A program made the position numbers and the translations under genes. The notes under the pieces were generated by a model. That model ran no database searches and had not been told where the DNA came from. It saw only the letters and a list, made by a program, of their open reading frames with translations. A stretch of 64,000 nt of DNA, from assembly GCA_963713825.1 (NCBI GenBank), contig CAVQNG010000025.1, positions 704,001 through 768,000 of the forward strand. Reading direction: 5' to 3'. Origin of the DNA: an uncultured Acidobacteriota bacterium (GTDB taxonomy: Bacteria; Acidobacteriota; Thermoanaerobaculia; Multivoradales; JAHEKO01). How positions within the stretch are numbered: the stretch's first letter is position 1; each line of letters starts with the position of its first letter. Below, piece after piece: positions 24,890 to 41,699 of this stretch.

Positions 24890-24910
24890 GACCCGGTCAG
24901 AGGAAAAATC

Positions 24911-26359: not shown

Positions 26360-26868
26360 CCGCTAAGGGAACTCTGGTCCTGGGTTGGGGAAATCCTGGT
26401 CGCCTCGATGACGGGATTGGCCCGGCCTTTGCGGCGAGCCTGAAGACGATGCACCTTCCCGGAGTCGAGGTCGACTCTGACTACCAGCTTCAGATCGAGG
26501 ACGCGTCCGAGATCGCTGCCTTCGAGCGAGTCGTGTTCGTCGATGCCGATCGCGGCGGCGCCGAGCCATTCTGGTTGCATCGCATCTACCCCTCCCCGAA
26601 GGCGGCGAGCGGTTCGAGCTTCACGACGCATAGCGTCTCGCCTGGCGCGGTACTGACGATGACTCACGAGCTGTTCGATGCCGAGCCAGAGGCCTGGTTG
26701 TTGGGGATTCGTGGCTACGAGTTCAGCGACTTCGGAGAAGAGCTTTCAGACAGAGCAAGAGAGAACCTGCAGCAAGCGTTGGAATTCGTCAGCTCGGCGC
26801 TGCTTGACGGCAGCCTTCATGAGGTAGAACCCCCTGTGGACCCGCCGGCGGACTCGCCGGGATTGTGA
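26356..26868 (+). CDS. hoxW: Hydrogenase maturation protease
   Basis: LGWGNPGRLDDGIG, VFVDA, TTHSV; ATGA overlap with hoxH. Confidence 0.9.
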   Translation: MTAKGTLVLGWGNPGRLDDGIGPAFAASLKTMHLPGVEVDSDYQLQIEDASEIAAFERVVFVDADRGGAEPFWLHRIYPSPKAASGSSFTTHSVSPGAVLTMTHELFDAEPEAWLLGIRGYEFSDFGEELSDRARENLQQALEFVSSALLDGSLHEVEPPVDPPADSPGL

Positions 26869-26877
26869 GGACGAATC

Positions 26878-27258
26878 ATGCAAGACGGAAAGCACGTGAT
26901 TCTCTGCATCGACGACGACCCCGACATTCTTTCCTTCCTGGAGATCGTCCTCGAGTCGGAAGGTTACGTCTACGCTGGTGCCGCCAGTGCCGAAGAGGGC
27001 CTCAGGGAGTTCAAGCAGATCGATCCCGATCTCATCATCGTCGACCTGATGATGGAGGAGGTGGACGCAGGGACGGGCTTCGCCAAAGAGCTCAAGGTCC
27101 TCCAGAATCGGGCCCCTGTCTTCATGCTGAGCTCGGTGGGCGACAACCTGAACCTGACGACGGATACCGCGACCCTCGGCCTGGCCGGCGTCTTCCAGAA
27201 GCCCCTGGCGAAAGAGACACTCCTTTCAGTGCTGAAGGCGAAGCTGTCGGAAGATTGA
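26878..27258 (+). CDS. Single-domain response regulator
   Basis: ILCIDDD, IVDLMME, MLSS, QKP; 9 nt after hoxW. Confidence 0.9.
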   Translation: MQDGKHVILCIDDDPDILSFLEIVLESEGYVYAGAASAEEGLREFKQIDPDLIIVDLMMEEVDAGTGFAKELKVLQNRAPVFMLSSVGDNLNLTTDTATLGLAGVFQKPLAKETLLSVLKAKLSED

Positions 27259-27289
27259 GAGCGTTCCAGCCCCGGGTTGCGCTGGGCCG

Positions 27290-29227
27290 CTAGAGGTCTA
27301 GAGGTCTCGAGGTCTCGAGGTCTTGAGGGGGCTTGTCCTGGCGGATGGGCAGCTCGATCGTTACGGTCGTTCCCTGGCCCTCTTCGCTCGACAGCTCGAG
27401 CGTACCGCCGTGCCTTTCGACCGTCTTCTTGACCAGGACGAGACCCAGTCCAGTCCCCTCGGCGGTGAGCTTCTTGGCGTTCGAAGCGCGGAAGAACTCA
27501 TGAAAGAGCTTGTCTTGCTCAACCGCGGGAATGCCAATGCCGGAATCGCTGACTCGGATCTGGACTCTGTCGGGGCCGTCTTGCCGAAAGTGGACCTCGA
27601 CCTCGCCGCCTTCGGGGGTGTACTTGATGGCGTTGGAAACCAGGTTCTCCATGACCTGTTCGAGCAAGTCGGCACCACTGTCCACGTCGGGAATGCCCTC
27701 CTCGACGGTCACCTCGAGACTAAGCCCCTGGCGGGCGGCTGCCTCGCGAAATGTTTGCTCTGTGTAGCTGGCCAGCTCGGTGAGGTCGACAACAACATCG
27801 GGAATCTCGCGGCTCCAGTCCCGTGTCTTGGCGATCGTCAATAGCTCGCCTATCGTCTGGTTCAGGGATCGCAGTCGGACCTCGATACGCTTCAGGTAGT
27901 CGGCTTGTTGGTCCGTCATCTCTCCGAGCAGGCCCTCTTCGAAGAGATCCAGCATCGTCAGGCCAGCGCCGAGTGGGGCGCGCAGGTTGTGCGCCACCTG
28001 CAGCATGAACTGTGTGCGCTCCTGCATCAGAGCCTCGATGGACTCATAGGCCCTGGCACCGTCGATGGCGATGGCCACGAGCTCGGCGGCCAGCTGGAGA
28101 TAGTCGGTATCACTGGCTTGGAAGTGATCGGGAGCCTGCGAATAGAAGCCCAGCGTTCCGATGACCCTGTCTTCGACCTTGAGGGGGGCCAGAACAGCCG
28201 ACCGGATGCCGAGGGCGCTGAGCTCCTGCCGCAGCTGCAATGTGTCGTCCTCGTCGATTCTCGCCTCTACAAGGGTCTCTCCATCGATGATCCGCTGATT
28301 CAAGGGACTCTGGTCCAGATGGACGACCTTCTCCTGGGTCAGCTCACTCGGCAGCCCGTGGGCAGCAACGTACCGCAGGGTCTTCCCGTCTTCGGACAGC
28401 AGCTTGACAGCCACCGCAGGAATCTCCATGACCTTGGCCAACTCCGAGGTCGCAGTGGCGAGGATAGGCTCGAGATGCCGCTCCCCTCCGATCGTCCGGA
28501 CAATGGCATAGAGGCTGTTGAGCTTCTCATTCAGATCGGCCATCTTTGTCGTAGCCACGGCGAGTTCTCGCACCCGCCTTCTCAGTCGGCCCATGATCCG
28601 GCTCACCATGACGACCACCAGGAAAAGGGTCGCAGCGAAGAAGAGCAACATGAGAACCGCGGAGACAGTGTTGCTGACGACCAGGGCTGGCTCGCCGTGA
28701 TAGACGATGTAGTAACTGGGATACCAGCCCGTCACGTCACCGACAAGCAGAATCCAGAGTCCTCCGACTGCCAGTCCCGCCAGGCCATAGGCCGTCCCTG
28801 GGGAGAACTGAATCGCGGCGATGATGACGTGAAAGACCAGGAAGAAGATCAGCGGGCTCGCCACGCCACCGGTGAAGTGGAGAAGCAGGAGCATGGCGGC
28901 ATAGTCGACGAGCACCTCGAGGACGGTGAAGACTCGATCCAGCTGAGGATCGGCCTGCAGCCGACTCTCATAGCGACTGAAGATCCAGGCGAAGACTGCG
29001 TTGTAGAGGGGGCTCGCGAGTGCGATCAGCAGGATCGGCACCACTTGGAACTCGAACCCCAGGGCCAGGCCCACCAGGACGCCCGCGACCATGAGAGGGG
29101 CGACGGCCCAGCGCATCTTGATCTGCCAGAAGCCCCGTCGGCCCCACAATTGAGGGAGGTTCTGGCGTCCCGGAATCAGCTCACGGGCGGCCAATTCGCT
29201 GGAAATGATCGGGTCGTCTCGCAGCAT
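27290..29227 (-). CDS. Membrane sensor histidine kinase (multi-TM, GAF, HisKA, HATPase)
   Basis: About six TM helices, GAF (VLAPL...VIGTL), VAHNLRAPL, NLVSNAIKY, DSGIGI, GTGLGL. Confidence 0.92.
   Translation of the reverse strand: MLRDDPIISSELAARELIPGRQNLPQLWGRRGFWQIKMRWAVAPLMVAGVLVGLALGFEFQVVPILLIALASPLYNAVFAWIFSRYESRLQADPQLDRVFTVLEVLVDYAAMLLLLHFTGGVASPLIFFLVFHVIIAAIQFSPGTAYGLAGLAVGGLWILLVGDVTGWYPSYYIVYHGEPALVVSNTVSAVLMLLFFAATLFLVVVMVSRIMGRLRRRVRELAVATTKMADLNEKLNSLYAIVRTIGGERHLEPILATATSELAKVMEIPAVAVKLLSEDGKTLRYVAAHGLPSELTQEKVVHLDQSPLNQRIIDGETLVEARIDEDDTLQLRQELSALGIRSAVLAPLKVEDRVIGTLGFYSQAPDHFQASDTDYLQLAAELVAIAIDGARAYESIEALMQERTQFMLQVAHNLRAPLGAGLTMLDLFEEGLLGEMTDQQADYLKRIEVRLRSLNQTIGELLTIAKTRDWSREIPDVVVDLTELASYTEQTFREAAARQGLSLEVTVEEGIPDVDSGADLLEQVMENLVSNAIKYTPEGGEVEVHFRQDGPDRVQIRVSDSGIGIPAVEQDKLFHEFFRASNAKKLTAEGTGLGLVLVKKTVERHGGTLELSSEEGQGTTVTIELPIRQDKPPQDLETSRPLDL
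27293..27328. repeat. 8-bp tandem repeat (GAGGTCTN) x4.5
   Basis: GAGGTCT at 27293, 27301, 27309 and 27317, plus GAGG at 27325. Confidence 0.8.
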
Positions 29228-29334
29228 CTGGAGAGCGGCAGAAGAGAGGGGTGCTCGGCCAAGATCGATCGCTGTTCGATCTTCACAGGGATGCTAACAC
29301 GGGCCTGTGAAGCCGCTGGATCGGCAGGCTCAGG

Positions 29335-30714
29335 CTACTCGGTCGAGGGCTCGGCCTCGGCATGTCCTACCGGTGGGCTGGGAAGCGCCTCCCTGGCCTT
29401 CTGGAGCTTTCTATAGAGCGTGCGCTCGCTGACTCCGAGCCGCCGAGCCAGCGCCCGTTGGCTACCGCCAGTTCGGGACGCTGCCCATCCGATGTAAAGC
29501 GCCTCCACATCGCTCAAGGGCACCACATCTCCCTCGAAGCTCAGTCGTGGTCTCGAGACTTCTTTGCCTGTCAGGCAGGCACTGGGGAGATGTTCTGGCA
29601 GGATGATTTTTCCGTCTGCTGTCAGACAAGCGCGTTCCAGGATTTGGATCAACTCGCGGACATTTCCCGGAAAGTCGTAGGCTTGCAGCGCCTCGATTGT
29701 GCTGGGATCGACCTCAGGGCGGGGCTGTAGGAGCTCCAATCGGTGCAGCAGGCTGTCGACGAGAATCGGGATGTCGGTGATTCTGTCTCGCAGGGAGGGC
29801 ACCGCGATGGGGAATCCTCCGATCTGATGTCGTAGGTCGTCCCGAAAACGACCGGTCCTGGCGAGGTCGTCGAGGCTGTGCGTCGAGGAGCAGATGAGGC
29901 GGAACTCCGATCGCTGGGACTGGGTGGCTCCTTCGGGTATGTAGGAACCGGTCTCGAGCAGGCGGAGCAACTTCACTTGTGCGGCCGAGCTGAGAGTCTC
30001 CACCTCCTTGAGAAACAGTGTGCCGCCATCAACCGCTCCGACGAAACCGGTCCGGGATTCATCGGCTCCTGGAAAAGCTCCCTTGGTGTGGCCAAAGAGC
30101 TCGCGCTCGAACTGCCATTCGTGAAGGGCCGCACAGTCGACCGGAACAAAGACGCGGTGAGCGCGAGGACTGATCTCGTGAAGCGCCCTGGCGACGAGCT
30201 CCTTGCCGGTTCCCGCCTCCCCGAAGATGGCCACCGACTTCTCGGTCGGTCCGACGAGCTCCAGATCCTGCAGCATCCGATTGAACATCGGTGAGCGACC
30301 CACCAACCGATCTCGACTGGCCGTGGCGCTGGCGATCTTTAGCGGCTTCAAGACCTCGAGGAAGTTGTCGAGCTCGCCGGTCTCGTCGAAGAGCGGCCGC
30401 ATGACAATGGCAGTATGGACATCGCCCTCCGGGGTTCTGTGAACATGGACGGTGCGTGCCGGCTCTCCCGTTTCGAAGCTGCGCTGCAGGGGACAGAGCT
30501 CGGAGATGCCTTCGCAAGGCACATCGCGGCAGTGGGAGACCTCGAAACAAGGTCGGCCCTTCACATCGTGTCCATCGGAGAAGACCGAACGGAACTGCTC
30601 GTTGGTGGCGACGATCACTCGATCGCGACCGAGCAACATGGCGGCATCGGGCAGGGCCTCCAGTAGAGCCGCGAAGCGGCCGTTTCGGGGTGGGTGCGTG
30701 ACTTGCTCTTTCAT
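29335..30714 (-). CDS. PAS-domain sigma-54 enhancer-binding protein with degenerate AAA+ motifs
   Basis: PAS, Walker [29 protein letters not shown], Fis-type HTH (ARRLGVSERTLYRKL). Confidence 0.9.
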   Translation of the reverse strand: MKEQVTHPPRNGRFAALLEALPDAAMLLGRDRVIVATNEQFRSVFSDGHDVKGRPCFEVSHCRDVPCEGISELCPLQRSFETGEPARTVHVHRTPEGDVHTAIVMRPLFDETGELDNFLEVLKPLKIASATASRDRLVGRSPMFNRMLQDLELVGPTEKSVAIFGEAGTGKELVARALHEISPRAHRVFVPVDCAALHEWQFERELFGHTKGAFPGADESRTGFVGAVDGGTLFLKEVETLSSAAQVKLLRLLETGSYIPEGATQSQRSEFRLICSSTHSLDDLARTGRFRDDLRHQIGGFPIAVPSLRDRITDIPILVDSLLHRLELLQPRPEVDPSTIEALQAYDFPGNVRELIQILERACLTADGKIILPEHLPSACLTGKEVSRPRLSFEGDVVPLSDVEALYIGWAASRTGGSQRALARRLGVSERTLYRKLQKAREALPSPPVGHAEAEPSTE

Positions 30715-30871
30715 GCTGGGTTCCTCGCTGCCACTGGTGTCAGTCCCTGGTGGGAAGTCCCGACACCGAAGGCGTTTGTCGGAGTCTCCGGATTCTCGTC
30801 ATCACCTAGTCGTCGTGGGCGTTCCTGAGAGTTGCTGCCCAGCCTCCTCCCTCCTTCAGTTCGAAATTGCT

Positions 30872-30886
30872 ACAAGCTTCGTGCCA
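30872..30886 (-). promoter_or_regulatory. Putative sigma-54 promoter for the 30714 gene (variant -12 element)
   Basis: Minus strand TGGCAC-GAAGC-TTGT; -24 element matches consensus, -12 GC is GT. Confidence 0.5.
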
Positions 30887-31013
30887 AGCTCGGGCAGCCT
30901 CGAAATCTTCTCTCCCGAGTCGGATGGGTCGGACGCCGCAATAGGGAGAAGCCTCCCCGTCGCCAGGTTTCGAGAGCGGCCCGCGGGCATTTCGTCGAGT
31001 CCCCAACCCGGGA

Positions 31014-31061
31014 CTGCAACCGGTGTCAGAGCGCCGGTGGATCCTCTGCCGGGGATGGCAG
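31014..31061. promoter_or_regulatory. Tandem candidate activator sites (UAS type 2)
   Basis: CTGCA-ACCGGT-GTCAG (31014) and CTGCC-GGGGAT-GGCAG (31046); similar pair at 33023/33065. Confidence 0.55.
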
Positions 31062-31217
31062 AAAAGGGCGCGGCTCGGGCAGCCAGGGCGTCTCTCTCGA
31101 ACGGGTCTGCCGACTCCGTCCAGCGCTCGAAGTCCTCGAAGAACGCTTTGATTCTTGGGTCTTGTCGGGAGTCCCTGTCCGGTTTTGCTGCCACCTGGCA
31201 GAGCCATCTGCCTGTTC

Positions 31218-31232
31218 TGGCACACCTATTGC
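31218..31232 (+). promoter_or_regulatory. Sigma-54 (-24/-12) promoter
   Basis: TGGCAC-ACCTA-TTGC, an exact match to TGGCAC-N5-TTGC. Confidence 0.85.
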
Positions 31233-31328
31233 GCTATCTGCTGGAAACGCAAGGACAGGAGGCGTCCAAGCCTTCTAGAGCGCAGCGGGGCCCCGCGACG
31301 GCCTTGGTCATGGAGCTGGAGAAAGACC

Positions 31329-31511
31329 ATGACCGATCACATTCACCGCCAACCGGAAGCTGTCGTCCTGGGTCTGCAGCTGAACCGAGAGTCGATTGCA
31401 GCTGGTGACCAGCTGAAGGTGTGGTTTCGAGACCGAAGGGAGGTGGCATATCGATTTTATTGCGGTCGAGGGGGCGGAGAAACGAAGTCTTCACAGGCTA
31501 ACCATGATTAA
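31329..31511 (+). CDS. Possible 60-aa small protein
   Basis: GGAG seven nt before ATG; lies between the sigma-54 promoter and the 31533 gene; no recognisable motif. Confidence 0.3.
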   Translation: MTDHIHRQPEAVVLGLQLNRESIAAGDQLKVWFRDRREVAYRFYCGRGGGETKSSQANHD

Positions 31512-31532
31512 AGAAGAGACCTTCTATGGAGG

Positions 31533-32876
31533 ATGGAAATGAACCAGATGAGCCAGAAATCGTGCCTGATCCTCGGGCTCGCGCTGAGCGTCCTGCTGGC
31601 AATTGCTCCGGCGACCCTGGCCGAAAAGCCGGAGGATCCGGGAGGCAAGCCGCAGGATGAACCCGGTGGAAGCTCCGATTTTGCCGTTCTGTATGGCGAT
31701 CTCTACGTCCTGGAAAGGGATGGGAACGGCGTGCCGGTGACTCGCATCGTCACCTACGACGACCCCGAGTATTCAGAACCTGTCGACGTCGATTGCCTGC
31801 AACCGATCGCCGCAGACTGCTCGATGTTGAACCTGTGGGGAGAGATGCCGGGATTCGATGCCGAGCTCTACGACCCATGCGAGATCCACGTTGATGACCT
31901 GGAGTTGGCTCAGGAAGTCTCCTTTGGGCGCCAGAGCGTCGTGCGGACCGACCCTACGGTTATTGACAGCGCCTACTTCGAGGCCTTGAAAGTCCTCAAC
32001 TCCGCGACGGAATACTACGATCCCGACAATGAGCTCCTGGATGTCTCCTTGCCCGTTCGCCTCGACCCGGCGGGAAGGTTCGAGTTCTACATTCCGGTTG
32101 TCGAGGGCGCGACCGGCTGCGTGGCGCTCGAGGATTGCGCCTGGAAGACGATCGATTCGCCCTTGGAGAATCTGGGTTTTTACCGCACTCTGATGCTCGA
32201 CGGCTGCTTGATGCCCGTCACGGTCACCCGTGGTTACACGGATAGTACCAACACGCTTTCGGCGACTGCGGCCGGCTACCTGGTCGACGCAGACCTGGGC
32301 CATTTGATCTGTGGAATGGTCGACGGAGAGCTGGTACCCGATGAGCATCCGGAAAGCCTCGACATGTTGATGGCAGCGGCCTTCTGGGGAGGAGCCGCTG
32401 ACAAGACGAGCCCGGTGGCCCTTGACGAGTTCATCAACGCGAACACCTACCTGGGGATCAACTCGTACGTAAGAGTCGGGGGGACCAAGAAGAAGCCGGA
32501 GTTGGAATTCACCTACTTCGACTTCACTCCCTTCAGTTATGACCGCGCTGCTACCCATCCCGCGGGAGGAGTGGATCCAGGAGAGGGTTTGCCGCCCATT
32601 CCGTCGAGTGCCACGGTCTTGGGGCTTGCGACAGAGGAGCCGACGTTCGAAATTGTCACTCCTTTGATTCTGTTCTCGGGATCTCCTCCTGGAGTAGATC
32701 TGGAGACTGTCGCAGTCCCGGTCTGCAGGGATGGAGTGATGCTCGGGCCCTGCCTCGGCGGCTCCGGGGATGAAGGCCATTGCGGGCCGGCGAACTACTT
32801 CGAACAGGCCACGGAAGATGCTCGCAAGATCGTCTGGTTCGTCCACAACTGGCACATTCCAGAGATCGCGTACTGA
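31533..32876 (+). CDS. Secreted acidic Cys-rich protein of unknown function (paralog A)
   Basis: Sec signal peptide; GGAGG RBS favours ATG 31539; shares five motif blocks with the 33316 gene. Confidence 0.9.
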   Translation: MEMNQMSQKSCLILGLALSVLLAIAPATLAEKPEDPGGKPQDEPGGSSDFAVLYGDLYVLERDGNGVPVTRIVTYDDPEYSEPVDVDCLQPIAADCSMLNLWGEMPGFDAELYDPCEIHVDDLELAQEVSFGRQSVVRTDPTVIDSAYFEALKVLNSATEYYDPDNELLDVSLPVRLDPAGRFEFYIPVVEGATGCVALEDCAWKTIDSPLENLGFYRTLMLDGCLMPVTVTRGYTDSTNTLSATAAGYLVDADLGHLICGMVDGELVPDEHPESLDMLMAAAFWGGAADKTSPVALDEFINANTYLGINSYVRVGGTKKKPELEFTYFDFTPFSYDRAATHPAGGVDPGEGLPPIPSSATVLGLATEEPTFEIVTPLILFSGSPPGVDLETVAVPVCRDGVMLGPCLGGSGDEGHCGPANYFEQATEDARKIVWFVHNWHIPEIAY

Positions 32877-33022
32877 AACAAGCTGTCCAATCGGGCGTTC
32901 GCCTCGCTCGATCGCCAGGTGGCGGAGCCTTTTGAAGGCCCCGCCGCCTCTGCGTTGGGAAGACTCGGCAGTCGAACCCGTCAAGTTGCTTGATCTGCCG
33001 AACGTCGATCTCAGGAACCGGA

Positions 33023-33080
33023 CTGACAAAGATGTCAGCAGGTCGGTTGCGTATTGGTACCGGACCGCCGCCGGTGGCAG
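33023..33080. promoter_or_regulatory. Tandem candidate activator sites (UAS type 2)
   Basis: Perfect inverted repeat CTGACA-AAGA-TGTCAG (33023) and CCGCC-GCCGGT-GGCAG (33065). Confidence 0.55.
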
Positions 33081-33219
33081 CTATCTGCTCGTCCGTAAGA
33101 CTTGATTGCAGGATAGAGCAGTTGATTCGCTCTCCATGTAGCCTGTAAATAGTTACAAATAAGGCACTTAAGCTGAATGACTTGCGACGTACTACATGGT
33201 CATGTTTGGCGTAGTCTGC

Positions 33220-33234
33220 TGGCTCGCTGCTTGC
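33220..33234 (+). promoter_or_regulatory. Sigma-54 (-24/-12) promoter
   Basis: TGGCTC-GCTGC-TTGC(T); preceded by an AT-rich stretch at about 33140-33180. Confidence 0.7.
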
Positions 33235-33315
33235 TACGGAGGTCTCCACCGACATCGAGCAAGGGCTGCGAGTGGGAGGTCGATGCAATCGTTTCAGCAG
33301 GAAGGAGGAGGCACG

Positions 33316-34782
33316 ATGCGAACCTGGAGAGTTGGATGGATGATTGTGACGGCCGCGGTGCTGCTCCCGGCGGTCCCGGCGATCGCGCAGGATCACGGCA
33401 GCGGCGGTCACGGTGGTGGTAGTGGCGGCGGTTGTGGCGACCTGTTCGGCGATCTGATCCATATTCTGCGTGACGATGTCACCGGTCAGCCCATACTGGC
33501 GAAACGCTGGATAGAGATGCCGAAGGAAATACCGGGATACGGCTGGGGCTACTGCCCGATCCCAGTGGACATCGACGGGGTGGAGCTCGGCTTTGCCCCC
33601 CTGAGCTGTGACGTCGATCCGGCGGACGAGGCCAGGGTCGTGGAGGTCGACTACTTCGGCCGTCTTAGCGGCGGGCGCGTCAAAGAGCGCAACATCCGCA
33701 TGCACTTCGACGAGGTGATTCGCAAGATCCGCCACTCGGAGGTCGTCGACCGAAACGCGGCAGGACGATTGAAGATGGGTGAGGGTTGCGATCTGGGCAG
33801 CGATCCGATCACCTGTTCTTTGTGGATCGAGCTCGACTCGCCCGTGGAGAACATGGCCGTCTTCCATCGCCTGATGAAGTACGGCCATTTCCAGACGGAT
33901 CCCAACGAGGAGGATCTCTGGGCCCATGGGGATCCTGCGGCGGGTACGGAGTACCACCCAGCGCTGCGGGCCAACGATTGGGGGAAATTCGTCGGCGAGC
34001 TGGTTCACTTGGTACCAGGAAAAGTCGGTGAGGAGGCGGAGTGCTTCTACCCCAACCCCGACTCGCTAGCTCCACCGGACGTGCCCTTCAATCCGCAGTG
34101 CGCAGTGCCACACAGGTTGAAGAAGCATGACTTCAATCAAGCGGCCTCGCTCCTTGGCACGGCAGCGAGCAAGGACGGTTGGGTGACCGACCACCTGGTC
34201 CAGTACCTCGGGCGCATCCTCAGGCTCACTGTCGATACAACCGACAATCCGTCAGGCGGTAGCCTGCCGACCAAGAAGACCCTGCCGGCCCTGGTCCGGG
34301 AATGCCAAGTGGAAGCTGGCTGGGACCCCGATCCCGATTCGGAGGATCAAGTCGAGCCGCCGTATGTTTTCACCGACTGCGAGGTCGTCGAGGCGATTCC
34401 TGCCATGGAGAACTACGAGCTGTTCGTCGATCTGCAGGAGGAGTTCGTCGACTTCGGCAAAGTGAATTTCAAACGCTGGCAGCGCTATCGCGACGAAGCG
34501 GGAATTCCCCTCGAAGTCGCTGTCATCGAGCCCCTGGGCTGGGTGCAGGAGCCCTGCGACTTCGATCCGGGTTCCGAAGAGCCCTATTGCGCAGCAGCGT
34601 CCTGGATGCCGGTGCAGGATCCTGGCGTACCGCTGATCGAGTGGCTTCGCTCTGTCAACTCCGGATTGGGTAGTGGCAGGGACATCGACGGCTTCGTCAA
34701 GGCTACGAACGACGCCATCCGTTCGGTACAGTTCATCCATAACTACCGCATCCCAGTCGACCTTTGGGACTTCGACTACTGA
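33316..34782 (+). CDS. Secreted acidic Cys-rich protein of unknown function (paralog B)
   Basis: AGGAGGAGG RBS before ATG 33316; signal peptide ending AIA-QD; His/Gly linker; homologous to the 31533 gene. Confidence 0.9.
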   Translation: MRTWRVGWMIVTAAVLLPAVPAIAQDHGSGGHGGGSGGGCGDLFGDLIHILRDDVTGQPILAKRWIEMPKEIPGYGWGYCPIPVDIDGVELGFAPLSCDVDPADEARVVEVDYFGRLSGGRVKERNIRMHFDEVIRKIRHSEVVDRNAAGRLKMGEGCDLGSDPITCSLWIELDSPVENMAVFHRLMKYGHFQTDPNEEDLWAHGDPAAGTEYHPALRANDWGKFVGELVHLVPGKVGEEAECFYPNPDSLAPPDVPFNPQCAVPHRLKKHDFNQAASLLGTAASKDGWVTDHLVQYLGRILRLTVDTTDNPSGGSLPTKKTLPALVRECQVEAGWDPDPDSEDQVEPPYVFTDCEVVEAIPAMENYELFVDLQEEFVDFGKVNFKRWQRYRDEAGIPLEVAVIEPLGWVQEPCDFDPGSEEPYCAAASWMPVQDPGVPLIEWLRSVNSGLGSGRDIDGFVKATNDAIRSVQFIHNYRIPVDLWDFDY

Positions 34783-34828
34783 AGCGGCGGCAATCCGGTG
34801 CTCCGCTGGTCTGGGAGTGCTGCTGATC

Positions 34829-34858
34829 CGGGCCGGGGGTTCTCCAACCTTCGGCCCG
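34829..34858. terminator. Hairpin between convergent genes (probable terminator)
   Basis: CGGGCCGGGGGTT-CTCC-AACCTTCGGCCCG followed by CTGTTCTT. Confidence 0.55.
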
Positions 34859-34904
34859 CTGTTCTTGTGGCAACGCTCCGGGGACGTCTCGGGTTCGGGC
34901 TCGG

Positions 34905-36236
34905 TCAGTGTTCCCTCAGTCGTCGGTAGAGGGTGCGCTCCGAGATTCCCAGCCGATCAGCCAGCTGGGCGCGCGAGCCGTCGAAGCGACTGCCCATCCA
35001 TTGGATGTAGCGGGTTTCGACATCGTCGAGAGATAGGATTCGGTCGATGTCGATGGGGATCGGCATCTCGCAGCCCACGTTTGTGTCGTTCGTCCCGATC
35101 AGGGGCAGGTGCTCCCGGTCGATGCGGCCGCTATCGCTGAGTAGGCAGGCGCGTTCCAGCATGTTATGCAGCTCGCGAACATTGCCTGGGAAGCTGTGAG
35201 ACCGCAGCACCTCGAGGGCCTCGTCGGTCAGGTGGCAGTGGCCGCCGCAGCCCAGGCGATCGAAGATGCAAGCGGCCAGCAACGGAATGTCCTCCCATCT
35301 CTCGCGCAGCGTCGGCAGGTGGATCGGAAAGGCACTGATCCGATAGTAGAGGTCTTCGCGGAACTGCTCGGCCTCGACCAGCTTCGTCAGGTCGCGGTGG
35401 GTAGCGCAGACCAATCGGAAGTCGGAGCGCCGCTGCTCGACGCTGCCGACCCGCCGAAAGGTGCCAGTTTCGAGCAGTCGCAGCAGCTTGACCTGCAGCG
35501 ACAGCGGAATGTCCCCCACTTCGTCGAGGAAGAGGGTGCCCTCGTTGGCCACCTCGACCAGACCTCGCTTGCGCTCATGAGCCCCGGTGAAGGAGCCCTT
35601 TTCGTGGCCAAAGAGCTCGCTCTCGAACAGTGTTTCGGTGAGCCCCGAGCAGTCCAGGGGTACGAAGGGACCGCTGCTCCGTGAGCTCAACGAGTGAACC
35701 GCACGGGACACCAGATCCTTGCCGGTACCCGATTCGCCGAGCAGCAGCACCGTCGTCGGGGTGTCAGCGACCCGCGTTACGAGGTCGAGCATGCGCTCGA
35801 AGGCGGGTGATCGCCCGACCATCTGTCCGTCTCGAGAGGACTTGAGGCTGGCGATCTGTTGCGGGGCCAGCACCTCCAGATAGAAGCGGATTCGGCCACG
35901 GTTGTCGCAGAGCGGATGCACGGTGACCGACTCGTGTTGCTCGCCTTCGGCGGTGTGGTGGATGTGCAGCGCCGGACACCGCGTGCCGCTGGCTCGGGCT
36001 CCGGCCAGGGGACAGCTTTCGCCGAGCTGGTCGCAGGGAATCCTGTAGTGGTGAGAGACCTCGTAGCAGTGCTTACCACAGACCCGATCGCCCTCCGCGA
36101 AGTGTTCGCGGTAGGCCTGGTTGGCAGCGACGATCTGATGTTCATCGTTGATGATGACCGCCGGCTCGCGAAGCCCCTCGAGCACCGAGGGCAGCGTGAC
36201 GTCCGAGAGGGGGGAGATTCTGTTGCTATCGATCAT
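34905..36236 (-). CDS. PAS-domain sigma-54 enhancer-binding protein (intact AAA+)
   Basis: [41 protein letters not shown]; paralog of the 30714 gene. Confidence 0.93.
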
Positions 36237-36245
36237 GTTTGACTC

Positions 36246-36710
36246 TCAGCGGCCGGGGCCGTTGCCTCTCTGCCCGTGTCCGCCGCGTCCCCCCATCGCT
36301 CCCTGACCGGGACCCCCCTGCCAGGCGCCGACGCCATCCCAGAGCGGGATACGGTGGAGCGTGCGCAGGCGCAGCATGGTGTGGCGGGTCAGGTTCTGGA
36401 CCTTGTGCACCTTGGCGGGTCCATCATCGGCTGGGAAGACTCGAGCTTGTATCTGGTCCCCCTGTTCGACCTGGAAATCAACTTCATCTAGGGCGGCTTT
36501 GGGTGCCAGCAGGAGGTCCATTTTCTTCCCCTCTGCTCCCGTGGGTGCGAGGGTTACCGACAGGACTTCGAGATCGCCCTCACCCGGTGCCGATGCGACG
36601 CTCAGAACCGTGCCCTCGACCGTGATGAGCGAGGAGCGCAGATCGTCCTTGGAGCTGGCCCCGATCAGCATGAGCACCGCAAGGCAGATTGCTGCAAATC
36701 GGAGCCTCAT
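36246..36710 (-). CDS. Exported OB-fold protein (MamS/MamX-domain-like) with Gly-rich tail
   Basis: Signal peptide; TVEGTV...LLLAP...GDQIQARV...LRLRTLHRIPLW pattern; ATGA overlap with the upstream gene. Family call from remembered pattern. Confidence 0.7.
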   Translation of the reverse strand: MRLRFAAICLAVLMLIGASSKDDLRSSLITVEGTVLSVASAPGEGDLEVLSVTLAPTGAEGKKMDLLLAPKAALDEVDFQVEQGDQIQARVFPADDGPAKVHKVQNLTRHTMLRLRTLHRIPLWDGVGAWQGGPGQGAMGGRGGHGQRGNGPGR

Positions 36711-37621
36711 CGCACGGGTCCCCGGGTACCTACGGTTGGTGTCGAGACACCGAAGGAAGTGCCGAAGAGAATCGTGAAGTCCTGAGCGGCGTCCGTTAGC
36801 CCGAGAGTAGTGAGAAGGCGCCAGCGCATCTTGCCAAGACTGCGCAGGCCGAAGCCCAATGCCGCCCTTGAGCCCAGGCCATCGACGACTTCGGGATTGC
36901 CCTCCACCCAACCCGACAGGATCAACCGGCCGCCCAGTGGTTCACTCTCGACACCGACGTAGCCCTCGACAACGTCGTTCAGGGTCTGCCAATCGGGATC
37001 GCCCAGGTAGTTCCAGCCGAAACCGCCGAAGCCCGTGGCGGACCAGAACCGGTACTCACTTGTCAGACCGAGGTAGGCGTCCCACTCGCCGGTGCCGAGC
37101 CCTTCGTCGGGATCGGCGGTCGGTACCTTCACTTGCGCTCCGAGATCCATTCGAAAGACCTTGGCACCACCTCCCATCAGGCGCCGGCTGCCAGCCAATC
37201 GAACATCTCCCAGGCCGGAGACCCACTCGTCCTCGACGGTGGTGACCGGGTCCGAGGTCTGGCCGTCGCTCGAGTCGGATCCGGTGCCCCCGGCCGAGCC
37301 GTTGCCGGAATTCGAAGAGATCTGGCTGGCGCTCTGCCCGCCAGATCCGTGCGGTCCTCGCGGCTTTCCCGGTACCGGTCCCTGTCCACTCGGGATGGGT
37401 GCGCCGAGTTCCTTCCGCAGAAAGCCGACGTCGGCTCTGAACTGGTACTTGTCGCCGGTCACGAAGGTGAGCTGGCCAGCTTGGGCAGCGGTATCAGTGT
37501 CGGTACCATAGCTCGCCTGCGTGATTCCACCCAGTAGGAAGAGCTCACCACTGAAAGCGACTACTGGGGTCGACGCCAGCAGGGCCGCGACGATGAGGAG
37601 AACGACAGTTTTGTCAGACAT
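36707..37621 (-). CDS. Putative outer-membrane beta-barrel (MetA-pathway/SphA 'transporter'-like)
   Basis: Signal peptide; GLGDVRL, VKVPTADPDEGLGTGEWD; amphipathic beta strands; Ser/Gly-rich insertion. Confidence 0.7.
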   Translation of the reverse strand: MSDKTVVLLIVAALLASTPVVAFSGELFLLGGITQASYGTDTDTAAQAGQLTFVTGDKYQFRADVGFLRKELGAPIPSGQGPVPGKPRGPHGSGGQSASQISSNSGNGSAGGTGSDSSDGQTSDPVTTVEDEWVSGLGDVRLAGSRRLMGGGAKVFRMDLGAQVKVPTADPDEGLGTGEWDAYLGLTSEYRFWSATGFGGFGWNYLGDPDWQTLNDVVEGYVGVESEPLGGRLILSGWVEGNPEVVDGLGSRAALGFGLRSLGKMRWRLLTTLGLTDAAQDFTILFGTSFGVSTPTVGTRGPVR

Positions 37622-37677
37622 GATCGATTCAGCGGGTCGTCGAGCAAGATCGAGTGTCGAATACGGCATACAGCACC

Positions 37678-37692
37678 GCAATTCCTGTGCCA
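37678..37692 (-). promoter_or_regulatory. Sigma-54 (-24/-12) promoter
   Basis: Minus strand TGGCAC-AGGAA-TTGC, exact consensus, about 55 nt before ATG 37621. Confidence 0.85.
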
Positions 37693-37730
37693 TCCTGAGC
37701 CCTCGATTCGACACCTTCGAGCGCCCGATG

Positions 37731-37760
37731 TTCGACAATTTCGTCGAATACGGTCCTCGG

Positions 37761-37778
<18 letters not shown>
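37731..37778. promoter_or_regulatory. Tandem candidate activator sites (UAS type 1)
   Basis: TTCGAC-AATTTC-GTCGAA, then TACGACGATTCTTGCCG 31 nt later; same layout at 41547. Confidence 0.7.
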
Positions 37779-39134
<1,356 letters not shown>

Positions 39135-39145
39135 GCCTCTGCCTT

Positions 39146-40762
39146 TCAGTCGATTGGGAGCTTCATCACCGCTTCTGCTCCGCCATCTTCGAGATTGACT
39201 AGGGTCACCGATCCTCCATGGTCCTCGGCAACCCGCTTGACCAGTGCCAAGCCAAGCCCGGTGCCGGAATCTCGGCCCGTCACGAAGGGATCGAAAAACC
39301 TGCCGTCCAACTCCGGGTCGAGCCCTGGTCCCTGGTCCTGAATGCGAATCAGTGCCATGCCGTTGTGCTCTGCCGCTTGCACGGCAATCCGCCCCCCAGA
39401 GGGGCTAGCCTGAATAGCGTTGCGAATGAGGTTGATCATGGCTCTGTGGATGGATTGCCGGTCAATCCTCGCGGAAGCCGAGCCGGAGACCTCCTCGAGC
39501 AGCACGCCTCGATCGGCAGCTTCTTCGGACATCAGGTCCAAGACCTCCCGCGCGATGGTCACCAGATCGGTTTCGGAGCGCCGGTCGGACACCGGGCTCG
39601 CCAATTCGAGAAAACCCCGCAGAACTCCTTCGAGGCGGCCAATCTCTGCCCGAATGCGACCGGCAATGCGCCGCAACTCGGTGTTGTCGGGCAACTTTCT
39701 CTCGAGGCGTTGAGCTGCCAGGCCGATGGCGTTCATCGGGCTCCGAACTTCGTGGGCCATTCCCGCCGTCAAGGCACCGGCGGCAGCCAGTCGCTCGCTG
39801 CGACGTCGTGCAGTCTCGGCCTCGGCTAGCCGTTGACTGGCCTCCTCACGCTCACGGGCGCGCAGTCGACTGACGACGGCGAACCCGGCCGCGCTGACGG
39901 CGAAGCCGGTCAGGATCAGCCCGAGTAACAGGGACCTCCACATGGTCTGCGAGGCCGTTCGTTGGAGTCCGCTACCGTCCAAGCCGACGCGTAGGGCAGC
40001 GCTGGTTCCGGCCGGTGATTCGATGGGCATTTCCACTTCTAGAGCGGTCTGCCCGCGGAGATCGAAGAGTCGCTGGTTCGATGGCGGCCTCGGTGGCACG
40101 GCGCCATCGTCCCAGGCGACGTCGACCACATTCCCAGAAGGTTCCTCGCGATAGCTGAGGTAGAGCACCCCTCCTGCGCCTACCAGTCTTTGCAGCAGGT
40201 TCTCGACCCCGAGCCGACGCGCGAAGGTTCGGGCCGTAGACGGATGAACTCGGACCAGCACTACGCCTCCGGAGGGCGTTCGCACAGCAGCGCCCAGATG
40301 CTCGACACCGTCTTCGAGTGAGGTGCCCAGAACAACCTCATCGGCGTCTTTGTTGAAGAGGTCTTGTAGCTCGTCTTTGACCCTTTCGGGCACCCCTTCC
40401 CCCAGGAGCTGGCGTTCTTGCTGGTCTGAGTCATAGAAGACGACCGAGTCGAGGCCGTTGTTGGCCGCCAGATCTTCGAGCAGCTCCTGGTCGTCTCTCC
40501 CAGCCTGTCGCAGCTCCGCCAGGAGGCGCGCGTTGTCGAGCATCTTCCAGGCAATGATCTCGTCGAGCTCGCGGCTGGCATGGGATGCGGCCACCAGCCC
40601 TGGTCCGAGCGACCTCGCCAGGACGGTGGCTTGTGCGGTGAGCGCTGCCTGGACCTGGCTGCGCTGATGGCGCGCTTCGAGGATAGTCCAGCTGAATAGC
40701 AGGACAGCCAGCAGCAGGGAGAAGACAACTAAGGTACGGGCGCGAGCTGGGCTCACGGGCAC
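39146..40762 (-). CDS. Sensor histidine kinase (NtrB/ZraS-like, periplasmic sensor)
   Basis: Two TM segments, ERLAAAG...MAHEVRSPM, NLIRNAIQA, DQGPG, GTGLGL. Confidence 0.93.
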   Translation of the reverse strand: MPVSPARARTLVVFSLLLAVLLFSWTILEARHQRSQVQAALTAQATVLARSLGPGLVAASHASRELDEIIAWKMLDNARLLAELRQAGRDDQELLEDLAANNGLDSVVFYDSDQQERQLLGEGVPERVKDELQDLFNKDADEVVLGTSLEDGVEHLGAAVRTPSGGVVLVRVHPSTARTFARRLGVENLLQRLVGAGGVLYLSYREEPSGNVVDVAWDDGAVPPRPPSNQRLFDLRGQTALEVEMPIESPAGTSAALRVGLDGSGLQRTASQTMWRSLLLGLILTGFAVSAAGFAVVSRLRAREREEASQRLAEAETARRRSERLAAAGALTAGMAHEVRSPMNAIGLAAQRLERKLPDNTELRRIAGRIRAEIGRLEGVLRGFLELASPVSDRRSETDLVTIAREVLDLMSEEAADRGVLLEEVSGSASARIDRQSIHRAMINLIRNAIQASPSGGRIAVQAAEHNGMALIRIQDQGPGLDPELDGRFFDPFVTGRDSGTGLGLALVKRVAEDHGGSVTLVNLEDGGAEAVMKLPID

Positions 40763-40802
40763 ATCCTAGCGCGCTGTCGGGGTTCGAGCGAAGCGCAGAA
40801 AG

Positions 40803-40829
40803 GCAAAGGGGGCGGTGCCGACCGCCCCC
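40803..40829 (-). terminator. Rho-independent terminator after the 41381 gene
   Basis: Perfect 9-bp stem GGGGGCGGT/ACCGCCCCC followed on the minus strand by TTTGCCTTT. Confidence 0.7.
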
Positions 40830-40859
40830 GAGCTCGTGTTGTGTGTGCTGCTGATCGTG

Positions 40860-41381: not shown

Positions 41382-41456
41382 GGTTTCGTTCCTCCGCATT
41401 TCCGCAGTGGGTCTGGTTTGTGAGTCCTCTTTCATGCCCATCAACGGTGGGATATA

Positions 41457-41471
41457 GCAGAGTTCGTGCCA
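41457..41471 (-). promoter_or_regulatory. Sigma-54 (-24/-12) promoter
   Basis: Minus strand TGGCAC-GAACT-CTGC(T). Confidence 0.8.
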
Positions 41472-41546
41472 GATCTTGAGAGCGTTGTAACTGTTGAGTT
41501 GAATGCTACTTATGAGAGAGGCGTCGCGTTCTCGACGCTTTCTCGC

Positions 41547-41594
41547 TTCGACAATCGCGTCGAATGAGAGGCCTGGCTTCGACGGATCTTGCCG
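41547..41594. promoter_or_regulatory. Tandem candidate activator sites (UAS type 1)
   Basis: TTCGAC-AATCGC-GTCGAA, then TTCGACGGATCTTGCCG 31 nt later. Confidence 0.7.
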
Positions 41595-41693: not shown

Positions 41694-41699
41694 CCTTTC

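Follow-up and report, generated by a model that had tools for sequence, protein, structure and literature searches.

FisR forms a Cys53-Cys64 tetrasulfide after exposure to sulfane sulfur, as described in an excerpt of PMC9495516, and three R-domain cysteines of Cupriavidus FisR sense reactive sulfur, according to an excerpt of PMC12754779. The excerpts of PMC7315123 and PMC12754779 state that the FisR cysteines are 'not generally conserved' and that they are absent from A. baumannii FisR. Here, we analysed a stretch of 64,000 nucleotides (the window) in which two genes for exported proteins, A and B, are flanked by two activators related to FisR. The comparison with Cupriavidus pinatubonensis FisR concerns these flanking regulators only, not A or B. 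The features of the locus, in order of position, are as follows.

29335..30714, minus strand: bEBP1, a paralogous activator with PAS_4, sigma-54 AAA+ and HTH_8 domains (Pfam)
30728..30743, no strand: dyad CTGCCACTGGTGTCAG, a candidate activator-binding (enhancer) site
30871..30886, minus strand: sigma-54 promoter-like site upstream of bEBP1, TGGCACGAAGCTTGTA, one mismatch, position and orientation fitting
31014..31029, no strand: dyad variant CTGCAACCGGTGTCAG, one departure from the consensus CTGMC-N6-GKCAG
31046..31061, no strand: dyad CTGCCGGGGATGGCAG, 172 nt upstream of the A promoter
31218..31233, plus strand: predicted sigma-54 promoter of A, TGGCACACCTATTGCG, one mismatch
31533..32876, plus strand: gene A, exported protein of 447 aa (probably 445 aa, from 31539), A-type superfamily member
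33023..33038, no strand: dyad CTGACAAAGATGTCAG, 197 nt upstream of the B promoter
33220..33235, plus strand: predicted sigma-54 promoter of B, TGGCTCGCTGCTTGCT, one mismatch, 216 nt upstream of the GDL codon
33316..34782, plus strand: gene B, exported protein of 488 aa, B-type superfamily member
34905..36236, minus strand: bEBP2, a canonical FisR-type activator (PAS_4 sensor, AAA+, HTH_8)
36246..36710, minus strand: small exported protein of 154 aa with a Gly-rich tail, in an operon with the outer-membrane-protein-like (OMP-like) gene and bEBP2
36707..37621, minus strand: OMP-like protein, outer-membrane-barrel-like, 304 aa with a signal peptide, its stop overlapping the start of the small gene
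37677..37692, minus strand: sigma-54 promoter-like site, TGGCACAGGAATTGCG, one mismatch, ~55 nt upstream of the OMP-like gene

Flanking activators and sigma-54 promoters

Common to FisR and the flanking bEBPs are a PAS-type sensor with three cysteines at 11 + 7 spacing, a sigma-54 AAA+ domain and a Fis-type HTH. The sensors read C56-x10-C67-x6-C74 in bEBP1 and C57-x10-C68-x6-C75 in bEBP2, and the C-x10-C-x6-C motif occurred in 12 of 13 neighbouring bEBP ORFs; the FisR Cys53/Cys64 spacing of 11 residues (excerpt of PMC9495516) is the same as in both sensors. The bEBP sensor domain shared 39.5 % identity (E 2e-19) with the sensor of a C. metallidurans bEBP flanked by a persulfide-dioxygenase-like gene and SQR, and by TauE and a SoxA/TsdA cytochrome, and C57, H62, C68 and C75 were invariant in the alignment with a Cupriavidus FisR-like protein. 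Unlike FisR, which has sqr/pdo as targets, the activators here adjoin A, B, the outer-membrane barrel and the small periplasmic protein. They also differ in being paired, one of them with a degenerate GAFTGA loop (Walker A GEAGTGK and loop GAFPGA in bEBP1, cf. GESGTGK and GSFTGA in bEBP2), and the dyad CTGMC-N6-GKCAG was absent from the Cupriavidus locus.

The bEBP2 sensor additionally contains H62, H91 and H93, of which H91 and H93 are also invariant beside the three sensor cysteines, and these cysteines and histidines could equally bind metal or sense another oxidant. Their invariance is consistent with an alternative that we regard as unlikely but well worth weighing, namely that A and B handle thiophilic metals (Cu, Ni, Zn, Cd) as periplasmic or extracellular metal-binding or metal-processing proteins, with the PAS sensors detecting the metal instead of sulfane sulfur.

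The initial annotation had given each gene its own sigma-54 promoter, and we found sites with one mismatch to the consensus searched (-24/-12, TGGCAC-N5-TTGC) at 31218 and 33220. The number of one-mismatch sites across the window was not above chance (18 vs 22.04 expected), so that the case for the two promoters comes from their conserved position in related loci: a site lay 204–228 nt upstream of the GDL codon in 8 B-type genes from 7 sources (window B included), against a background of 156 of 3326 windows of 460 nt. The leader of ~300 nt between the A promoter and A matched no family in an Rfam search. Dyads sit 100–200 nt upstream of both promoters. All three exact copies of the 16-bp consensus in the 64 kb (0.60 expected) fell in the upstream regions of A or B, and across 773 kb, 9 of 19 dyads lay in the 2.7 kb of sequence, taken together, upstream of 9 promoters, 8 of which had one, an enrichment of ~250-fold upstream of promoters. 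Promoter and dyad recurred at fixed distances in related Acidobacteriota loci, and the dyad is a candidate activator-binding enhancer. We infer that the flanking FisR-related bEBPs activate A and B. As read from the DNA, this regulation (sigma-54 promoters, dyads and FisR-type activators) is the firmest new result.

Homology, fold and relatives of A and B

Both ORFs were present at the coordinates initially annotated, and all 12 peptide motifs quoted there were found, collinear in A (residues 53, 127, 177, 204, 281 and 423) and B (residues 43, 109, 146, 170, 276 and 460). Judged by three sequence features, B starts at 33316 rather than 33196, because the promoter sits within the longer ORF, a ribosome-binding site (GGAAGGAGGAGG) lies just 5' of 33316, and homologues begin MRTWRVGW. 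For A, 31539 is the more probable start than 31533, given GGAGG at 31528–31532 and an identical database protein (P0001) of 445 aa. Secretion of both proteins had been proposed, in keeping with N-termini that read as Sec signal peptides, with a hydrophobic helix up to TLA|E in A (modelled helix 9–23) and up to AIA|Q in B (modelled helix 7–23). Mature A has 10 Cys and a pI of 4.05, mature B 11 Cys and a pI of 4.57, and neither sequence contains the haem-binding motif CxxCH, which agrees with their description as Cys-rich proteins lacking it. Multihaem c-type cytochromes were ruled out by the absence of this motif from both.

The description of A and B as tandem paralogues held at the level of family profiles. 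Pairwise BLASTP was weak, with two short collinear blocks (E 0.001 and 0.006), whereas hhalign of 62 A-type against 76 B-type sequences gave 99.9 % and E 2.7e-32 over 295 columns; the A-family HMM matched window B at 7e-17 and the B-family HMM matched window A at 2e-10. By these sequence profiles, A and B are homologous beyond chance. Homologues numbered 80 A-type and 318 B-type, every one named 'hypothetical protein' in its source, and a superfamily profile search returned at least 547 clusters at E ≤ 1e-3 (322 at ≤ 1e-10), none of them named, from Acidobacteriota, Gammaproteobacteria, Myxococcota and other delta-type lineages, Rokubacteria and Desulfuromonadales. A Pfam scan of 52 distant relatives left 51 without any family. 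Among long forms, 14 of 16 were fused C-terminally to Ig-like, BACON, Calx-beta, PKD/fn3, Y_Y_Y or FG-GAP domains, and the fusion partners across the superfamily were of Ig-like and FG-GAP type only. These fusion domains, the signal peptides and the hydrophobic N-termini of 45 of the 52 distant relatives point to an extracytoplasmic location. We take A and B to be two old paralogues from a large superfamily, not described before, whose members are alpha/beta proteins exported by Sec and stabilised by disulfides.

Neither protein had a recognisable family, as initially stated: Pfam yielded 0 families at E ≤ 1, NCBIfam 0 matches at E ≤ 0.01, and a PDB sequence profile search nothing below E 1 (best 1.1 and 1.6). 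AlphaFold gave confident models of A (pLDDT 82.5, pTM 0.83) and B (pLDDT 83.2, pTM 0.83), and Foldseek against the PDB found 0 matches at E ≤ 0.001 (best E 0.11 with TM 0.13, and E 2.4 with TM 0.12), the queries being whole models, so that a known sub-domain fold could escape. The monomer modelling and Foldseek check that had been proposed therefore returned no PDB counterpart, and the predicted A/B fold is one without counterpart among solved structures. Both models are mixed alpha/beta, with the shared motifs on or beside five or six long helices; the earlier suggestion of a helical core with disulfide-bonded insertions is partly supported. The conserved cysteines mostly differ between the two families, with A-type counterparts only for B C80, C98 and partly C243, which fits lineage-specific disulfide-stapled elaborations. 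DUF5666 and DUF2202, Pfam families found as neighbours in other loci, are like A and B exported, uncharacterised and situated in envelope/stress neighbourhoods; unlike them, A and B have no Pfam or NCBIfam model.

Beyond the initial annotation, the analysis brought out the size of the superfamily, three residues lost from B, the B arm, and the FisR-type regulators with their dyad.

Invariant residues and the B-type arm

Approximately 15 polar residues were near-invariant superfamily-wide (B numbering: D46, R52, R116, R121, E133, R151, D174, E178, Y183, D272, K286, D293, N299, D466 and H475). A retains the invariant residues that can be aligned (R182, D208, E212, Y217, D277, K291, D298, N304 and H438), and B is substituted at three otherwise invariant positions (Y183F, D293H and N299G). 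Almost every signature position was identical in the 44 locus-encoded B-type proteins; deviations at 293 and 299 were seen in window B, P0081–P0083 and L001, each also deviating at 183 except P0082. Since A keeps the residue set and B has lost three, A is probably the active copy in this genome and B a diverged or specialised one.

Of the residues invariant in the superfamily core, one is His and four are Arg, and none is Cys or Met. A and B may contain a metal or cofactor site; from the sequences compared, the Arg/Asp-rich invariant set looks more like an anion-binding or catalytic pocket, and the core composition, unlike known Cu, Zn and Ni sites, speaks against metal handling. The lack of an invariant core Cys also leaves no obvious catalytic thiol for sulfur-transfer chemistry. 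A polar set like this is what one would expect where a small anionic compound is bound or converted, and we therefore read the A/B domain as an extracytoplasmic enzyme or specific binding protein and not a structural subunit. A role as structural or adhesive subunits, in which A and B would singly or jointly form polymers or a coat on the cell surface or on a mineral, appears highly improbable: the two proteins are tandem, acidic, Cys-rich, exported paralogues and some lineages carry adhesin-type Ig and FG-GAP fusions, but fifteen near-invariant buried-type polar residues in very distant relatives would be unusual for such subunits, and B is alone in most loci, with an A-type partner alongside in only 4 of 41.

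Polymer-degrading enzymes use sets of the kind Arg/Lys + Asp/Glu + Tyr/His/Asn, and the invariant residues here resemble such a set. We also considered, as a quite unlikely reading, that A and B are secreted enzymes of new fold (polysaccharide lyase/hydrolase, phosphoesterase or sulfoesterase) whose substrate would be an anionic polymer outside the cell, with sulfur or metal entering only as regulatory context. Modules like those at the C-terminus of 14 of the 16 long forms typically occur in secreted carbohydrate-active enzymes, and the superfamily is widespread in soil and sediment phyla; however, there was no sequence or fold match to CAZy, esterase or nuclease families, the neighbourhoods of related loci contained no sugar transporters, TonB/SusCD-type systems or glycan genes, and a catabolic enzyme would be an unusual target for stress-type regulators.

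The B-type proteins carry an N-terminal arm (signal peptide, then Q-x-H, a poly-Gly/His stretch and G-C-G-D), which in B reads AIA|QDHGSGGHGGGSGGGCGD and was modelled as disordered (residues 18–45, pLDDT below 50). Cys40 of the arm was present in 117 of 120 B-type sequences, with Q at +1 in 108 and H at +3 in 84. This conserved and probably unpaired cysteine adjoins the first invariant motif; arm and cysteine are both absent from A-type proteins. The arm may be a tethered carrier or ligand for thiophilic species. The sulfur-carrier arm of SoxY is Gly-Gly-Cys-Gly-Gly, and the B-type arm resembles it as a flexible, disordered peptide with a lone Cys flanked by glycines (GGCGD), on an exported protein under a sulfur-type regulator. 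The SoxY arm is C-terminal, in contrast to the N-terminal arm of B-type proteins, and A and B have no sequence or fold similarity to SoxY/SoxZ, A-type proteins lack the arm, and no sox genes lie near. A SoxY-type carrier was ruled out by the N-terminal arm, the lack of a Pfam SoxY/SoxZ match, and the absence of sox from the window.

The composition of this arm also bears on metal handling, in which Q-x-H (an ATCUN-like X-X-His), the His-Gly runs and the arm Cys of B-type proteins would capture metal. An ATCUN motif is a free N-terminus with His at position 3, and stretches of M-x-x-M and H-G-G-G bind copper. Mature B-type proteins are predicted to begin Q-D/E/G-H (Q-D-H in window B) and to continue with Gly/His runs, which is ATCUN-like on the assumption of cleavage after AxA, the predicted site. 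Unlike in ATCUN, the N-terminal Gln can cyclise, which would block such binding, and the motif is absent from A-type proteins and distant relatives, the former having no arm at all.

Gene neighbourhoods and proposed role

A FisR-type neighbour was found in only 8 of 41 related loci (L001, L005, L007, L029, L032, L035, L038 and L039), all from Acidobacteriota and two of them contig-end fragments; in five Gammaproteobacteria loci, the neighbours of B are instead DUF5666 proteins and a two-component system of OmpR type. Both observations count against a general link of the superfamily to sulfur sensing. The small exported protein had 28 unnamed homologues, including one at the same position in L029. 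By phmmer, the OMP-like protein matched neighbours of B in 8 loci, one of which was a Phenol_MetA_deg (Pfam) protein at 3.5e-6; a Pfam scan of the window's own OMP-like protein gave no match. The 45 other window ORFs scanned contained no sqr, pdo, sox or rhodanese gene and no other gene dedicated to sulfur oxidation, which counts against a sulfur reading of A/B control.

Several neighbours are consistent with the handling of thiophilic metals. Directly downstream of B in six loci (L008, L010, L021, L022, L031 and L038) is a Gln/Met-rich secreted protein in which M-x-x-M spacing recurs, and after it comes an outer-membrane barrel. The two-component systems beside B, in 5 loci, best matched the heavy-metal sensor/regulator models TIGR01386/TIGR01387 of NCBIfam (E ~1e-50), but these matches are below the family cut-offs. 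Further neighbours include a YHS+HMBD P-type ATPase with a YHS protein and DUF302 (L012), a CDF transporter with TerB (L020), a NosD-like protein (L024), and DUF2202 ferritin-like proteins in 5 loci.

Biochemically, the function of A and B can be given only as we infer it: with a likelihood a little under even, they belong to a new family of proteins that act as enzymes or bind ligands outside the cytoplasm, and reactive sulfur or a comparable thiol-reactive signal induces them. Each gene would be transcribed from its own sigma-54 promoter with the dyad upstream and FisR-type activators flanking, the pair would be induced on meeting reactive sulfur or a chemically similar thiol-reactive signal, and A and B would work on that compound or its damage, either periplasmically or extracellularly. 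The sigma-54-driven outer-membrane barrel and the small periplasmic protein, in an operon with the activator, may work alongside them. More speculatively, and in our estimate improbably, the superfamily would be a new enzyme fold that processes inorganic sulfur outside the cytoplasm under FisR-type wiring, with the B-arm Cys binding the substrate (polysulfide, elemental sulfur, thiosulfate, polythionate or metal sulfide) covalently and delivering it to a pocket lined by Arg and Asp; the protein would then be a functional counterpart, complete in itself, of the SoxYZ/SoxB carrier-hydrolase pair.

At least 547 sequence clusters share this exported domain, which has no name, Pfam model or structural relative, and its hosts are soil and sediment bacteria that are abundant and have seldom been cultured. 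With its new fold, modelled with confidence, and its ~15 invariant polar residues, the domain is a strong candidate for an extracytoplasmic activity still to be discovered, and the sigma-54 promoter, 16-bp dyad and three-cysteine sensor give a concrete handle on the inducer and hence on the substrate. The predicted regulation would carry FisR-type sensing, until now a matter of sqr/pdo detoxification in Proteobacteria, over into Acidobacteriota, where its output would be a different one. If the improbable inorganic-sulfur reading were true, the superfamily would represent a step of the sulfur (or sulfur-metal) cycle that has gone unrecognised and is widespread among Acidobacteriota, Gammaproteobacteria and Myxococcota.

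Genes A and B and their superfamily

Two tandem genes encode the secreted proteins A and B, with residues numbered from 31533 in A and from 33316 in B.

31533-32876, + strand: gene A, ORF of 447 aa
33196-34782, + strand: gene B, longest ORF; the start at 33316 gives 488 aa

The start of B is almost certainly 33316, since the longer ORF contains a sigma-54 promoter, 33316 is preceded by a strong ribosome-binding site and homologues begin with MRTWRVGW. A probably starts at 31539, given GGAGG at 31528-31532 and an identical database protein of 445 aa. All 12 peptide motifs listed in the initial annotation were found in A and B in collinear order, and its description of Cys-rich, acidic proteins agreed with their composition (mature A, 10 Cys and pI 4.05; mature B, 11 Cys and pI 4.57; CxxCH absent). 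Both N-termini look like Sec signal peptides, as had been proposed.

The two proteins had also been called paralogues. As a sole test of homology, pairwise BLASTP was too weak to decide, aligning no more than two short blocks in collinear order (E 0.001, E 0.006), and was superseded by profiles. Homologues numbered 80 for A and 318 for B; hhalign of 62 A-type against 76 B-type sequences returned a probability of 99.9 % (E 2.7e-32, 295 columns), the A-profile HMM matched window B (7e-17) as well as other B-type ORFs (1e-15 to 1e-31), and the B-profile HMM matched window A at 2e-10. These scores and reciprocal matches bear out that A and B are true, old paralogues. When 1.84 billion cluster representatives were searched by profile, 547 clusters were recovered at E ≤ 1e-3, of which 322 also passed E ≤ 1e-10. 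Scored with the A and B HMMs, the representatives split into a compact B clade and a broad spread of A-like and intermediate forms. Among genomes, the nearest B homologue was in a Thermoanaerobaculia MAG (L001, 73 % identity), which makes this class of Acidobacteriota the probable origin of the window; tblastn of B against a plasmid collection gave no match.

The initial annotation had recognised no family for A and B, and this held throughout profile searches, AlphaFold monomer modelling and Foldseek. Neither protein matched Pfam at E ≤ 1 or NCBIfam at E ≤ 0.01, and the best match in profile searches of all PDB sequences had an E of 1.1. AlphaFold models built from the family alignments were confident (A, pLDDT 82.5 and pTM 0.83; B, pLDDT 83.2 and pTM 0.83), and Foldseek of the whole models against solved structures, a search that a known sub-domain fold may have escaped, gave none at E ≤ 0.001 (best for A, E 0.11, TM 0.13; best for B, E 2.4, TM 0.12). 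Among 52 distant relatives scanned with Pfam, 51 were without a family and one had a weak PKD match, and wherever a source gave a homologue a name, it was "hypothetical protein". ESM Atlas look-alikes were rejected as a lead, being unnamed clusters or one auto-named "CARDB" cluster without a common Pfam family. A literature search, largely confined to journals outside subscription, found no paper describing the A/B proteins. We consider it near certain that A and B are real exported paralogues and belong to a large superfamily that has not been described and whose predicted fold is unmatched.

Conserved residues, N-terminal arm and domain fusions

When 346 database proteins and the two window proteins (348 family sequences in all) were aligned on the B profile, they showed a signature that was near-invariant across the A family, the B family and distant relatives, and that coincided with the conserved motif set of the initial annotation. 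In B numbering, its positions are:

G45-D46-L47, R52, G57-x-P59; F114-G115-R116, R121, E133; G150-R151
D174-x-P176-x-E178, Y183, G190; D272, K286, D293, N299; F460, D466, H475-N476, P480

The conserved polar set comprises four Arg, one Lys, five Asp, two Glu, one Tyr, one Asn and one His. Because these residues are conserved over such evolutionary distances, we infer that they may form a pocket for catalysis or for binding a ligand, probably an anion. Among the alternatives, a structural subunit has the least support.

Three signature positions are altered in window B (Y183F, D293H and N299G). All three changes are shared by window B, L001 and the database proteins P0081 and P0083, while P0082 has H293 and G299 and keeps Y183. 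Across 120 B-type sequences, Y183 was present in 115, D293 in 111 and N299 in 110. Since window A retains Y, D and N at the positions aligned to 183, 293 and 299, A looks like the intact copy in this lineage and B like the diverged one.

Seven cysteines are conserved in B (C80, C98, C158, C243, C262, C330 and C355). Conserved cysteines are mostly family-specific: A-type counterparts exist for no more than C80, C98 and, partially, C243, which fits disulfide staples on lineage-specific elaborations. Past the predicted cleavage point, which follows AxA, the mature N-terminus of B-type proteins is an arm of Q-(D/E/G)-H, a Gly/Ser/His stretch of varying length and then G-C-G-D-x-F-G-D-L; of the 120 sequences, 117 have Cys40, 108 have Q at +1 and 84 have H at +3. 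This arm is disordered in the AlphaFold model of B and, as B has 11 Cys, its Cys40 may be unpaired. A-type proteins have neither the arm Cys nor the arm His. Handling of metals by these proteins draws real support from the B-type arm, and also from neighbouring genes in other phyla.

Long forms of the family carry C-terminal Ig-like and FG-GAP modules in 14 of 16 cases by Pfam, the Ig-like modules being Big_9, Big_3_5, He_PIG, cadherin-like, BACON, Calx-beta, fn3 and Y_Y_Y; these architectures are extracellular. Such fusion partners support a polymer-degrading enzyme as an alternative reading. Proteins of ~1000 aa headed at the N-terminus by the B-type domain occur in Vicinamibacterales and one Rokubacteria MAG and carry Ig-like, PKD/Y_Y_Y and FG-GAP modules; these long-form B-type proteins have E in place of N476. 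Long B-type ORFs of about 1000-1150 aa occur in L003, L008, L010, L011, L015, L019, L021, L022 and L031.

Sigma-54 promoters and FisR-type activators

Each gene had been assigned its own sigma-54 promoter, and one-mismatch sites were located upstream of A, B and two neighbouring genes.

31218-31233: sigma-54 site of A, one mismatch
33220-33235: sigma-54 site of B, one mismatch
30871-30886, - strand: site upstream of the activator gene bEBP1, one mismatch
37677-37692, - strand: site upstream of an outer-membrane-barrel-like gene, one mismatch

Sigma-54-like sites were not above chance across the whole window (18 found, 22.04 expected), so this count was not used as evidence and positional conservation across loci was used instead. 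Across the 41 loci that the B profile retrieved, a site lay ≤460 nt upstream in 10 of 44 family genes, compared with 156 of 3326 background windows. Eight B genes (L001, L005 twice, L007, L029, L038, L039 and window B) had the site 204-228 nt upstream of the GDL codon, and this conserved spacing upholds the promoter assignment. The A leader (31234-31532, + strand), some 300 nt between promoter and start codon, is unusually long and, as Rfam at E ≤ 0.1 found nothing in 26800-42000, corresponds to no known RNA family.

A candidate activator-binding element accompanies these promoters. Our first dyad pattern, CTGNMACNNGTKNCAG, was too narrow, with 2 matches in the window, a number reached by 10 of 100 shuffles. 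The 16-bp pattern CTGMC-N6-GKCAG, adopted after comparison with related loci, occurs exactly three times in the window (30728, 31046 and 33023), always in the upstream region of A or B (0.60 expected; three reached by 1 of 100 shuffles). Over all loci, 9 of 19 dyads in 773 kb fall within the 2.7 kb upstream of nine promoters, eight of which have at least one dyad, located 102-199 nt upstream. In the Cupriavidus FisR-like locus, the dyad was not above chance.

A and B are flanked by two sigma-54 activators.

29335-30714, - strand: bEBP1, Pfam PAS_4, sigma-54 AAA+ and HTH_8
34905-36236, - strand: bEBP2, Pfam PAS_4, sigma-54 AAA+ and HTH_8

Both PAS domains contain C-x4-H-x5-C-x6-C, a motif also present in 12 of 13 bEBP ORFs adjoining family genes (L005, L007, L029, L035, L038 and L039); the remaining one is an alternative ORF that overlaps. 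Residues 1-135 of bEBP2 matched a chromid protein of C. metallidurans CH34 (39.5 % identity, E 2e-19), itself a PAS_4 bEBP between two gene groups. To one side lie a metallo-beta-lactamase-fold gene, whose best NCBIfam match was sulfur transferase/dioxygenase Blh (1e-116, below cut-off), and a type III sulfide:quinone reductase-like gene (2e-53, below cut-off); to the other lie TauE and a SoxA/TsdA-type cytochrome. This arrangement is the one described for Cupriavidus FisR. A four-way sensor alignment showed the three Cys and His62, His91 and His93 to be invariant. The three sensor Cys of FisR lie at positions 53, 64 and 71. In C. pinatubonensis FisR, sulfane sulfur produces a Cys53-Cys64 tetrasulfide, and the 11-residue spacing of these cysteines is the same as in the flanking regulators (PMC9495516). 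By sequence, the CH34 match, the invariant Cys and His and this spacing class bEBP1 and bEBP2 as FisR-type. Two further papers state that Cupriavidus FisR uses three R-domain cysteines, not conserved in general, to sense reactive sulfur (PMC12754779) and that A. baumannii FisR lacks these three (PMC7315123). Sequence conservation gives good support to a regulon in Acidobacteriota in which the A/B genes would depend on sigma-54, a defined enhancer dyad and activators of the FisR three-cysteine type; regulation is the firmest functional evidence.

Some FisR-type paralogues are degenerate and keep the three-Cys PAS sensor: window bEBP1 and L029 6026-7516 have GAFPGA for GAFTGA, and others have lost the loop together with Walker A. 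Such paralogues may assist the canonical copy in sensing or act as its anti-activators.

29335-30714, - strand, window (bEBP1)
1741-3084 and 6026-7516, L029
7235-8332, L038
7264-8328, L039

Gene neighbourhoods and proposed role

Genes in the GC-rich loci were called by a GC3-GC2 score, since longest-ORF calling picked antisense ORFs. In the window, the barrel-like gene, a small-protein gene and bEBP2 appear to form one operon under one sigma-54 promoter.

36707-37621, - strand: outer-membrane-barrel-like gene, first of the three-gene operon
36246-36710, - strand: small exported protein gene, its start overlapping the stop of the barrel-like gene

L029 also has the arrangement of B, bEBP and small protein. 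The small protein has 28 homologues, all unnamed, of which the data suggest that four co-occur with A- or B-type proteins. Pfam at E ≤ 0.5 gave only low-complexity noise for the small protein, the OMP-like protein and recurrent unknown neighbours.

Four of the 41 loci have an A-type partner, three have two B-type copies and eight, all Acidobacteriota, have FisR-type bEBPs. Homologues of the window barrel protein occur in 8 loci and DUF2202 ferritin-like neighbours in 5; five Gammaproteobacteria loci carry DUF5666 proteins with an OmpR-type regulator and kinase, a system whose best match was a heavy-metal sensor subfamily, below cut-off. Single cases were L012 (YHS/HMBD P-type ATPase with YHS and DUF302 proteins) and L020 (TerB, CDF transporter and GST). 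A DUF5666 protein is among the top 20 by abundance in Dissulfuribacter thiosulfate disproportionation, according to one report (PMC13490349), a weak hint towards sulfur. Combined, the neighbourhoods indicate envelope, thiophilic stress, and do not discriminate reactive sulfur from metals.

In 6 loci, the gene immediately downstream of B encodes a secreted Gln/Met-rich protein and is followed by the gene of an outer-membrane barrel. These Gln/Met-rich proteins are about 170-240 aa long, with glutamine runs of up to ~30 and then a Met/Arg/Asp-rich helical part with repeated M-x-x-M, and matched no family in Pfam or NCBIfam.

13052-13669, L008
12957-13598, L010
13092-13736, L021
6707-7432, L022
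10319-10933, L031
14075-14581, L038

Elsewhere in the window we observed:

3352-9716, + strand: two tandem AcrB-type RND transporters
21778-26868, + strand: NAD-linked [NiFe]-hydrogenase cluster just upstream of the regulon (fused NuoE/NuoF-like diaphorase, 2Fe-2S/4Fe-4S subunit, small and large hydrogenase subunits, maturation protease)
37761-40762, - strand: third sigma-54 system, a response-regulator bEBP (best AtoC/ZraR-like) and a histidine kinase (AtoS/ZraS-like)
41456-41471, - strand: one-mismatch sigma-54 site upstream of an uncharacterised ORF (40860-41450)
54651-56405, + strand: AceK isocitrate dehydrogenase kinase/phosphatase
59908-63915, - strand: 1335-aa multi-domain glycosyltransferase (GT4 and GT2)

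In our proposal, the A/B domain would be an enzyme or a specific binding protein whose pocket is directed at anions, the B-type arm would offer this pocket a Cys/His ligand, and induction would come from sulfane sulfur or from a thiol-reactive or thiophilic agent like it. On a plasmid/chromid of Pseudoalteromonas xiamenensis (L043 2958-7320), a three-Cys PAS bEBP is divergent to the cytochrome bd oxidase genes cydB, cydX and cydP and also lies upstream of an HlyD/ABC efflux system, a placement which suggests that FisR-type sensors control outputs besides sqr/pdo, the known FisR targets. The regulator type is known; what is new is the A/B output module.
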